Shown one piece after another: positions 29,445 through 30,521 of a stretch of 64,000 nt of DNA (the stretch's first letter is position 1; each line of letters begins with the position of its first letter). Source of the stretch: Corallococcus coralloides. Its GTDB lineage: Bacteria > Myxococcota > Myxococcia > Myxococcales > Myxococcaceae. The DNA is taken from the NCBI RefSeq assembly GCF_044792175.1, contig NZ_CP172866.1. One strand, 5' to 3'. Position numbers and translations under genes: made by a program. Below the pieces are notes generated by a model. That model did not search any database. It was not told the origin of the DNA and saw only the letters and a list, made by a program, of their open reading frames with translations.

Positions 29445-30206
29445 TCAGGACAGAGACGCCGCGCGTCCGCCGATTGCGGGGAAGCGCTCGTAGGCCCGCT
29501 TGAGCGCGTCCAGGTGGGCAGGGTTGTCGTAATCGAGCGGTGCCTCCGTGAGCTGCACGATCCACCCGCCTGACGGAGTGCGACGCGCCCGGGTGAGCAG
29601 TTCGGAATCGCGAGCAGGGTCCGGGAACCCGATGACCTCCGCGGCGGCTGCGGACCAGTAGTTCACCCACCCGAGGAAGCAGGGAATCTCAGGCGTGGGG
29701 AGGTTCTCTGGAAGGTTGAGCATGGGAAGCCCACGGGGGGAGAGCTCTGGGCCGTCCGGCGAACGGCGGAACTGCTGCGCGACTTCCGAGCCGTAACCCA
29801 ACGGCGACGCATGGCCCCAGAACGACCGTGCCCCTTCCGCCACGCCCTCAAGCAGTGCCGCCGCTGCCGCGATCACGGGCTCGTCCAGTGGCAGCTTGGC
29901 GTGAACCTCGAACTGGGACTGACCGCCTGGACTCAAGAGTCCTGAGCTCTCCATTCCCCAGACCGTCACGGGATAACGCTCATCACCGTTACACACGAAC
30001 GGGAATCCACCGTCCTTGTTACTCGCCAAGAGCCATTCGTCGCGCTGCGGCAATGCAATGGGGCGCCCGCCTTCGTCCAGCTTCCAGTGAAGGCGTAGGC
30101 CGGGAAATGCTCTCTCCATCCCATGGACGACAGCGACCGGTCGGCCCTTGTCAGCCATGAGCGCAGGCGCGTAGACGATAAGGGTAATGGCGCTACGCTT
30201 GGTCAT
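29445..30206 (-). CDS. Hypothetical protein (possible immunity-like partner of the upstream small peptide)
   Basis: ~254 aa with no signal peptide and no recognised domain. It lies immediately downstream (same strand) of a small secreted Cys-rich peptide gene. The alternative start at 30275 lies inside the terminator hairpin. Confidence 0.4.
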   Translation of the reverse strand: MTKRSAITLIVYAPALMADKGRPVAVVHGMERAFPGLRLHWKLDEGGRPIALPQRDEWLLASNKDGGFPFVCNGDERYPVTVWGMESSGLLSPGGQSQFEVHAKLPLDEPVIAAAAALLEGVAEGARSFWGHASPLGYGSEVAQQFRRSPDGPELSPRGLPMLNLPENLPTPEIPCFLGWVNYWSAAAAEVIGFPDPARDSELLTRARRTPSGGWIVQLTEAPLDYDNPAHLDALKRAYERFPAIGGRAASLS

Positions 30207-30256
30207 CGTGCCCACTCGCGACAACGAAGAAGAAATCAGGCATTGAGAGTGAAAAG

Positions 30257-30283
30257 CCTCCGTGCCCTGGGACACGGAGGCTG
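30257..30283 (-). terminator. Intrinsic terminator after the small-peptide gene
   Basis: The plus-strand CCTCCGTG(ccctggga)CACGGAGG hairpin has an 8-bp stem. On the minus strand it is followed by CUUUUCACUCUC. It lies 14 nt after the stop of 30297..30521. Confidence 0.5.
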
Positions 30284-30296
30284 ATGGTTCAGCGGT

Positions 30297-30521
30297 CTAC
30301 TGAGGGTTGGTGCAGCGCCACACCCCGCAGGAACCCTCACGCGAGCCACAGTCATATTGGCTCGAGCAAGGCTTGCAACTGGCCGAACAGATCATCTGGA
30401 CGGCCTGGGTGTCGGTCGTCTCCGCCGCCGAGCCGGGGACCATGGCCAGGGCCGTGCCCGCCATGATGCCGAGGATCAGCGCGAATCCGGGAATCGTCTG
30501 CTTCAGTCGCGATGGCTTCAT
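30297..30521 (-). CDS. Small secreted cysteine-rich peptide (74 aa precursor; ~45 aa 6-Cys mature peptide)
   Basis: Strong RBS GGAGGAAGCACACATG. Signal peptide MKPSRLKQTIPGFALILGIMAGTALAMVPGSAA. The mature region is ETTDTQAVQMICSASCKPCSSQYDCGSREGSCGVWRCTNPQ with 6 Cys. It has its own terminator, and the mature region uses atypically low-GC3 codons. Confidence 0.55.
   Translation of the reverse strand: MKPSRLKQTIPGFALILGIMAGTALAMVPGSAAETTDTQAVQMICSASCKPCSSQYDCGSREGSCGVWRCTNPQ

Follow-up and report, generated by a model that had tools for sequence, protein, structure and literature searches.

We analyzed a locus of Corallococcus coralloides contained in a 64,000-nucleotide (nt) stretch of contig NZ_CP172866.1 (assembly GCF_044792175.1), hereafter called the window. 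On its minus strand, this locus carries a small gene encoding a precursor of 74 amino acids (aa) with six cysteines, which we refer to as the peptide gene, and, downstream of it, a gene encoding a protein of the Pfam family DUF5953. Upstream, on the opposite strand, lies a homologue of the major vault protein (MVP). An initial annotation had interpreted the two minus-strand genes as a bacteriocin or signalling-peptide locus, with an immunity or processing partner encoded by the downstream gene. According to the comparative data presented here, these two genes are better explained as unrelated elements that have come to lie side by side. The peptide gene comprises the following features, which are located with reference to its open reading frame (ORF), its coding sequence (CDS) and its 5' untranslated region (UTR):

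30521..30297, minus strand: 74-codon peptide ORF, ATG at 30521 and TAG at 30297 (translation).
30297..30521, minus strand: CDS of the 74-aa precursor, whose translation is MKPSRLKQTIPGFALILGIMAGTALAMVPGSAAETTDTQAVQMICSASCKPCSSQYDCGSREGSCGVWRCTNPQ.
30423..30521, minus strand: putative signal peptide region, codons 1–33 (alignment, by inspection).
30300..30392, minus strand: cysteine-rich core I44–Q74, with the spacing C-x3-C-x2-C-x5-C-x6-C-x4-C (alignments).
30529..30534, minus strand: Shine-Dalgarno sequence GGAGGA, 7 nt 5' of the ATG (from the sequence).
30549..30567, minus strand: 5' UTR inverted repeat GGGCAG GATGCT CTGGCCC, also present at the equivalent position in nine other loci.
30581..30609, minus strand: promoter-like element TTGGCG-17 nt-TCGAAT (conservation across loci).
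30252..30282, minus strand: terminator-like hairpin with a 12-bp stem, a 4-nt loop and a TTTT tract (folding).

In the peptide ORF, the G+C content at third codon positions (GC3) is 0.83, against 0.52 and 0.59 at positions 1 and 2, in a window with 70.6% G+C. This frame-specific GC3 excess is the expected signature of a coding sequence. The initial annotation had noticed codons of low GC3 in this gene, and indeed the rare codons TGT, AGT, CAA, TAT, CGT, and GGT are all present and its GC3 is below the 0.94–0.98 of the neighbouring core genes. A homologue search covering 5.8 billion proteins identified 13 homologous clusters, 66–93% identical. Every cluster assigned to a named organism is from Corallococcus, and the protein is termed "hypothetical" wherever a source names it. 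Two metagenomic relatives were found besides the Corallococcus clusters. Searching 1.84 billion cluster representatives with a profile of the core recovered the family itself and a single 86-aa relative with a longer linker, P0134. P0135, a 287-aa repeat protein containing GVWRCTNPRTSPSWT five times, was rejected as a homologue, since it has just the eight residues GVWRCTNP in common with the peptide, a match that we consider coincidental. These searches define a homologous family that corresponds to no Pfam or NCBIfam family. The best match of the Pfam scan, to DUF6520, is below threshold (E 0.028, 15 bits for a cut-off of 25), the NCBIfam scan gave zero matches, SCIFF models included, and a PDB sequence-profile search with the peptide returned nothing at E ≤ 10.

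Within this family, all six cysteines are invariant in 14 sequences and in one distant relative, and 36 columns of the alignment are invariant. The frame is open in all of the approximately 15 sequences, and the indels are multiples of three and limited to the linker between the signal region and the core. Among eight distinct orthologous coding sequences, the pooled ratio of nonsynonymous to synonymous polymorphism (pN/pS) amounts to 0.50 for the whole sequence and to 0.39 for the cysteine-rich core. Amino acid replacements concentrate in the loops between the cysteines.

The peptide gene is surrounded by conserved candidate expression signals. Of the 11 loci compared, 10 retain the GGAGGA motif, and the eleventh, locus L091 of Corallococcus praedator, has AGAGGA instead. 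The position of the ORF and its ribosome-binding site (RBS) agree with the initial annotation, in which the spacing was counted as 8 nt, a difference of counting convention. The promoter-like element has the form TTGGAT-17-TCGAAT in most relatives, about 75–90 nt before the peptide ATG. It is conserved in most peptide loci, the second box being TCGACT in L091 and the first box being lost in L017. We infer a promoter role for this element, which a scan of the region for consensus promoters and terminators did not call: the scan reported no sigma-70 site and no terminator. The sequence TGGCAC just before the RBS was also considered as part of a sigma-54 promoter, a reading rejected by inspection because the −12 TTGC is missing and the ATG is too near. 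As for the inverted repeat of the 5' UTR, 87% of the cells are paired over 10 loci, with two pairs doubly changed, a result matched by just 19–23 of 500 shuffles. RNAalifold favours a weak alternative pairing of GCTCYGG with the Shine-Dalgarno region. This repeat might conceivably act as a translational or stability element.

Downstream of the ORF, the hairpin begins exactly 14 nt past the peptide stop and is followed by UUUUC. Its folding energy is −24 kcal/mol (z = −3.0 relative to shuffles). All 10 Corallococcus loci compared retain the stem, and its pair 13/24 is AU in six, GC in two, and UA in one, revealing compensatory changes. The strong terminator announced in the initial annotation is borne out for its position and its hairpin, but its U-tract is short. 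This run of only 4 U accounts for the failure of the terminator scan to detect the hairpin. No Rfam family was identified within the peptide region. Altogether, the peptide gene is probably well translated and probably ends at a terminator of its own.

By inspection, the N-terminus of the precursor displays the features of a Sec-type signal peptide, as the initial annotation had proposed: K2, R5, and K7 (n-region), a hydrophobic stretch (h-region), and then ALA|M or SAA|E as AxA motif. The candidate signal peptidase I site ALA26|M27 (ALA|MVPG) is invariant in Corallococcus. The second candidate, SAA33|E34, aligns with ASA|E of the distant homologue P0134. A prepilin-like reading of the invariant residues P11-G12 was discarded, as residue +1 varies (F, L, or I) and there is no Glu at +5. 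The six cysteines of the precursor are all located within its last 30 residues and span 26 residues. Their spacing is the one given in the initial annotation except for the third gap, which is of five residues and not six. The invariant pattern of the core is ICS..CKPC..Q..CG...GSCG.WRC, with variable loops in between. AlphaFold2 (AF2) predicts a structure consisting mostly of short strands, with a predicted local distance difference test score (pLDDT) of 84–88 across residues 41–70.

The peptide gene and the MVP homologue are divergently oriented in most Corallococcus genomes. In L091 (C. praedator RAWI01000067), the peptide gene is found in a wholly different context and is still accompanied by the box, the UTR, and the terminator. 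As these elements travel with the ORF, they form a self-contained cassette of about 400 bp. In L091 (2331–12228), the cassette lies not beside MVP but within a polymorphic-toxin island encoding AHH nucleases with Imm11 and Imm49, an Exo_endo_phos protein, and DUF2169 together with a PAAR-like toxin gene. The gene is also located elsewhere, away from MVP, in a metagenomic relative. The frame-specific GC3, the invariant cysteines, the pN/pS values, the conserved terminator, the mobility of the cassette, and an AF2 core pLDDT of about 85 all speak for its reality. With cysteines invariant in 14 sequences and with ORF, promoter-like box, and terminator conserved as a unit, the feature lies far outside what chance would produce. 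As judged from sequence comparison, it is a genuine, selectively constrained, and independently transcribed small gene with a secretion-type N-terminus. That its product is a real secreted disulfide peptide we consider likely, with good confidence.

The downstream part of the locus contains two features:

29445..30206, minus strand: intact DUF5953 gene, 253 aa (Pfam PF19378, E 5.9e-118).
30203..30230, minus strand: scar, putative 3'-terminal remnant of a DUF6310 gene, ending in an ATGA overlap with DUF5953 (by-eye match).

The downstream protein had been described as lacking any detectable domain. It matches DUF5953 over its full length, with a score of 393 bits for a cut-off of 25 and coverage of model positions 2–233 of 233. 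It is 97% identical to a protein of Corallococcus interemptor, and the GC3 of its gene is 0.75. The GC3 values of the peptide gene and of DUF5953 are both atypical relative to core genes, which fits an accessory or mobile origin. We surveyed 80 DUF5953 loci (L010–L089) in a collection of one genome per species, including the genera Corallococcus, Myxococcus, Archangium, Hyalangium, Pyxidicoccus, Vitiosangium, and Citreicoccus, among others. Six of these loci are from Corallococcus terminator BB12-2 and nine from a single metagenome-assembled genome. A DUF6310 gene is present in 78 of the 80 loci, whereas the peptide is present in only two. In at least 71 loci, DUF6310 immediately precedes DUF5953 in the same orientation, and the gap between them is usually 0 nt. 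DUF5953 therefore belongs to DUF6310 and not to the peptide, and we hold it to be very probable indeed that the two neighbours in the window are not partners.

The peptide loci point the same way. In L002 (Corallococcus strain CP114039), a 307-aa gene lies between the peptide terminator and DUF5953, whose start it overlaps by 4 nt, and the C-terminal 126 residues of its product match Pfam DUF6310. The DUF6310 gene is likewise intact at the peptide locus L017 (C. interemptor AB047A). In Corallococcus exercitus (L001) it is internally deleted, and in strain EGB (L003), which has the peptide closest to that of the window, DUF6310 and DUF5953 are both fragments. The peptide occurs without DUF6310 or DUF5953 in Corallococcus macrosporus (L008), Corallococcus exiguus (L004–L007), AB011P (L092 and L093), and C. 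praedator (L091). In the window, the peptide and DUF5953 genes are on the same strand, 90 nt apart. About 25 nt of this interval (GTTGTCG..CGAG..CACGATGACC) resemble, by eye, the 3' ends of the intact DUF6310 genes of L017 and L002. A gap-cheap local alignment of the scar was uninformative, hence the call by eye. The scar indicates that the putative DUF6310 toxin gene has been deleted from the window and that an intact DUF5953 gene was left behind.

DUF6310 proteins measure about 300 aa, of which the N-terminal part, with the central hydrophobic stretch, takes up about 180 aa. Of the 64 full-length ORFs, 54 begin with a lipobox such as MRLRACAALLLFLSAC|ATS. In the C-terminal domain, residues H198, N199, D203, D214, D223, and E234-x-K236 are conserved in at least 95% of the proteins. 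The D...E-x-K motif has the form of a PD-(D/E)xK-type pattern and suggests a nuclease-like domain. On the DUF5953 side, 1442 homologues are detectable, with several divergent copies per genome. UniRef labels some members as "Immunity protein 52" (Imm52) or DUF3396. Pfam Imm52 matches 3 of 26 members collinearly, below threshold (E 0.056–0.26), and the top fold match of the DUF5953 AF2 model (pLDDT 54) is PDB 7DRG/PA0821 (Foldseek E 0.11, probability 0.57, TM 0.23). Literature searches for the names DUF5953 and DUF6310 found none. DUF6310/DUF5953 is probably a lipoprotein toxin–immunity family that is undescribed or unlabelled. Because the genomic coupling to DUF6310 is strong, even though the similarities to known immunity families are all weak individually, we regard the DUF5953 gene of the window as very likely an orphan immunity-type gene. 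The immunity function suggested in the initial annotation would thus be retained, but not in favour of the peptide.

Two further features are located upstream of the peptide gene:

30638..30685, minus strand: lipoprotein-gene remnant, last 16 codons (...GGDRVTFRWIRD followed by the stop codon; tblastn, 87.5% identity to residues 222–237, E 1e-4).
30867..33134, plus strand: MVP homologue (Pfam Vault, Vault_2, Vault_3, Vault_4, and MVP_shoulder).

The MVP homologue is adjacent and on the opposite strand, as initially reported. The remnant derives from a gene for a cysteine-rich lipoprotein of 237–249 aa, which occupies the interval between MVP and the peptide gene and is intact, truncated, or absent depending on the strain: it is intact in L002, L003, L005, L007, and L017, whereas L004 and L006 have a version shortened to 71 aa. 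The 19 clusters that make up the lipoprotein family come from Corallococcus, Myxococcus, and Archangium and carry no annotation, and no peptide gene follows the lipoprotein gene at its Myxococcus and Archangium loci. The far flank also varies between genomes, being occupied by RdgC, nadC, or an aminotransferase gene. In addition, some Corallococcus genomes, unlike the window, carry an HmuY-like gene and a gene encoding 517 aa 3' of MVP. None of seven metagenomic MVP loci, 77–87% identical to the MVP of the window, carries the peptide. In the two that we inspected (L094 and L096, 85–87% identity), whose upstream flank is long enough for this purpose, the upstream neighbours differ entirely, with a DksA-like gene and RuvA in one case and a histidine kinase in the other. 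As MVP loci elsewhere lack the peptide, we read the adjacency to MVP as inherited synteny and not as a functional link. The adjacency of the peptide gene and DUF5953 is an accident of insertion and deletion at a variable spot beside MVP. No export, processing, or maturase gene was found beside the peptide gene in any of the peptide loci examined, nor any metal-homeostasis gene near it. The peptide gene has no co-conserved partner gene.

The locus of the window is best explained by two unrelated elements lying side by side, a peptide cassette and an orphan immunity-like gene, a reading to which we assign a probability of about 0.6. The cassette would be monocistronic, with its promoter-like box, short 5' UTR, strong RBS, ORF, and terminator. 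The 74-aa precursor would leave the cytoplasm through Sec and lose its signal peptide by cleavage following Ala26 or Ala33. Formation of three disulfides in the periplasm would then turn its 31-residue core into a compact mini-protein, which could be released to the periplasm, to vesicles, or to the medium. A precursor layout resembling that of the Escherichia coli enterotoxin STa makes this a plausible route of biogenesis. The mature peptide might then be a binding effector directed against other organisms, acting as an antagonist or inhibitor in competition or predation. Among the roles considered, we favour this extracellular one, though tentatively and at somewhat less than even odds. It is suggested by the predicted secretion, the invariant scaffold with variable loops, the restriction to one predatory genus, and the atypical composition. 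That the peptide would found a new class of six-cysteine effectors, neither defensin nor knottin, secreted by Sec without dedicated immunity and with loops tuning the targets, is more doubtful still. The DUF5953 protein, for its part, would be the immunity half of a widespread two-gene module of Myxococcaceae, in which the upstream toxin half is a DUF6310 lipoprotein of outer-membrane type. Loss of the toxin gene from this genome would have left the immunity gene directly after the peptide terminator.

Several observations weigh against this scenario. The signal peptide and the formation of disulfides are predictions made by inspection, and the residue just before the second candidate cleavage site (position −1) is Pro in some homologues. 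With a net charge of 0 to +2, the core is near neutral, unlike typical cationic antimicrobial peptides, and fold searches with the peptide model gave no significant relative pointing to a target. It is this near-neutral core and the lack of a fold relative that led us to rate the effector role low. The peptide sequences are all from one genus, so that their conservation partly reflects recent common descent. Finally, the DUF5953 model has low confidence (pLDDT 54), and the links to Imm52 and DUF3396 are all below significance.

The initial annotation offers the most direct alternative, in which the peptide is a bacteriocin or a signalling peptide and DUF5953 its dedicated immunity or processing partner, expressed through read-through of an attenuator. 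It accounts for the two genes being on the same strand, 90 nt apart, for the same order in C. exercitus and C. interemptor, and for the resemblance of DUF5953 to an immunity protein. However, in relatives possessing both genes, DUF6310 or its remains always lie between them, DUF5953 is absent beside the peptide in at least four lineages, and 78 of the 80 DUF5953 loci are devoid of the peptide. Moreover, the precursor lacks a double-glycine leader, and neither an ABC/C39 exporter gene nor a maturase gene is found in the vicinity. The comparative data largely refute this model, which we consider very improbable. A functional tie between the peptide and the divergent MVP homologue, for instance as a co-regulated partner, appears hardly more credible. 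In the window, in L001–L008, and in L092 and L093, the two genes diverge and either adjoin each other or have only the variable lipoprotein gene between them, despite differing far flanks, but synteny within a single genus is weak evidence. MVPs that are 85–87% identical have other neighbours and no peptide, and the peptide is encoded elsewhere in C. praedator and in the metagenomic relative. In addition, MVP lacks a signal peptide, which would place it in a different compartment from an exported peptide.

The main alternative, unlikely in our view but less so than the others, is that the peptide acts in the envelope of its producer, for example as a periplasmic thiol-rich Cu/Zn binder or redox buffer. 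A stretch of 26 residues holding six invariant cysteines and a C-x3-C-x2-C cluster, a near-neutral charge, and a Sec signal in the absence of dedicated outer-membrane export genes nearby would all be consistent with this role, for which an immunity gene would not be needed. On the other hand, disulfides are expected in the oxidising periplasm, and the predicted core is compact and confident. The loops vary, whereas a metal site usually constrains its neighbours, and the family is restricted to one genus and without metal-homeostasis genes in its vicinity. A precursor of a ribosomally synthesized and post-translationally modified peptide (RiPP), of ranthipeptide/SCIFF-like or lanthipeptide-like type and with enzymes encoded elsewhere, would explain a core rich in Cys, Ser, and Thr after an N-terminal extension. 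This extension is, however, a Sec signal and not a RiPP leader, neither NCBIfam nor Pfam gives a match, and no radical-SAM, LanB/C/M, or peptidase/ABC genes occur in the peptide loci examined, making this origin scarcely believable. The same holds for a non-functional ORF, whether conserved as non-coding DNA or left over from a gene in decay. The ORF is short, "hypothetical" wherever named, and without domain match, but its frame is intact in about 15 sequences with in-frame linker indels, its cysteine codons are invariant, pN/pS is below 1, GC3 is frame-specific, and the RBS is conserved. Protein-coding conservation, as assumed in the initial annotation, is by far the better explanation.

If the peptide of the cassette proves to be an active effector, it would bring a new cysteine framework to the few ribosomal disulfide-rich peptides of Gram-negative bacteria. 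Its source genus is predatory and has already been mined for antimicrobials, and its 31-residue core is small enough for synthesis. The survey also provides a working annotation for two DUFs, with DUF6310 as a putative lipoprotein nuclease-like toxin and DUF5953 as its putative immunity protein, and the window clearly illustrates an immunity gene that persists as an orphan once its toxin gene is lost. Both results concern systems of known kinds, here in the form of uncharacterised examples, and overturn nothing. They do illustrate that adjacency in a single genome can mislead on gene partnership.

Small secreted disulfide-rich bacterial peptides are a known general kind, in which the peptide represents a new family restricted to one genus. 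Two classes of cis-defensins have been described in myxobacteria, the class I "corallosins," for which Corallococcus is the main source, and the class II "xanthusins," with mature peptides of about 30–45 aa (PMC11561630). Like these, the peptide has a Sec-type signal, a small six-cysteine mature part, and a stand-alone gene without adjacent immunity gene (PMC11561630). Corallosins follow the CS-alpha-beta pattern, for example SQVTCYAFECNASCVAKGFRLGKC... (PMC11561630). Unlike the cis-defensins, the peptide lacks the C...CxxxC...GxC...CxC arrangement: it has no terminal CxC, and its CxxxC is formed by Cys1 and Cys2. It has no sequence or fold similarity to them, and no defensin helix is predicted. 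The CKPC and VWRC motifs are missing from the sequence tables of that study (PMC11561630). We therefore rejected the peptide as a published corallosin or xanthusin defensin, as it is not in that set and its spacing misfits the CS-alpha-beta signature.

In its precursor, the peptide resembles STa. STa of E. coli is a 72-aa precursor with a Sec signal, a pro-region, and a C-terminal core of 18–19 aa, in which three disulfides are formed by DsbA, and export is via TolC. The peptide similarly combines, in 74 residues and in a Gram-negative producer, a putative signal, a polar and acidic variable linker, and a six-cysteine C-terminal core. It differs by another cysteine spacing, by a longer core of 31 aa, and by the absence of any hint of a guanylate-cyclase target, and the Pfam enterotoxin model does not match it at E ≤ 1. 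Eukaryotic knottins are inhibitor cystine-knot peptides with a knotted I–IV, II–V, III–VI disulfide topology. Like them, the peptide packs six cysteines into about 30 residues and combines a fixed scaffold with variable loops. Fold searches with the peptide model gave no significant match. Neither the motif nor the fold searches support the knottin/defensin-like label of the initial annotation.

The DUF6310/DUF5953 module can be compared with two known toxin–immunity systems. PA0821 is a DUF3396 immunity protein against a type VI secretion system (T6SS) effector of the VRR-Nuc, that is, PD-(D/E)xK, type (PMC9635880). With regard to these TsiV/PA0821 immunity proteins (PMC9635880), PA0821 is the top fold match of DUF5953, albeit below significance, and the putative DUF6310 toxin bears a D...E-x-K motif. 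Unlike PA0821-type proteins, DUF5953 is about 250 aa long instead of about 345 aa, and DUF6310 is a predicted lipoprotein and not a PAAR-linked T6SS effector. The other system, SitA/SitI of myxobacteria, consists of a lipoprotein nuclease and an immunity gene downstream, with 25–80 loci per genome (PMC5562445, PMC8546572). The N-terminal part of DUF6310, about 180 aa, differs from the escort domains of SitA, about 375 aa, and the likeness to SitAI is one of layout. In this layout, DUF6310 combines a lipobox with a C-terminal nuclease-like domain, and the immunity gene is directly 3' in the same operon. Like SitA/SitI, DUF6310/DUF5953 occurs in many paralogous loci, is restricted to Myxococcales, and is often decayed or orphan, as is the DUF5953 gene of the window.

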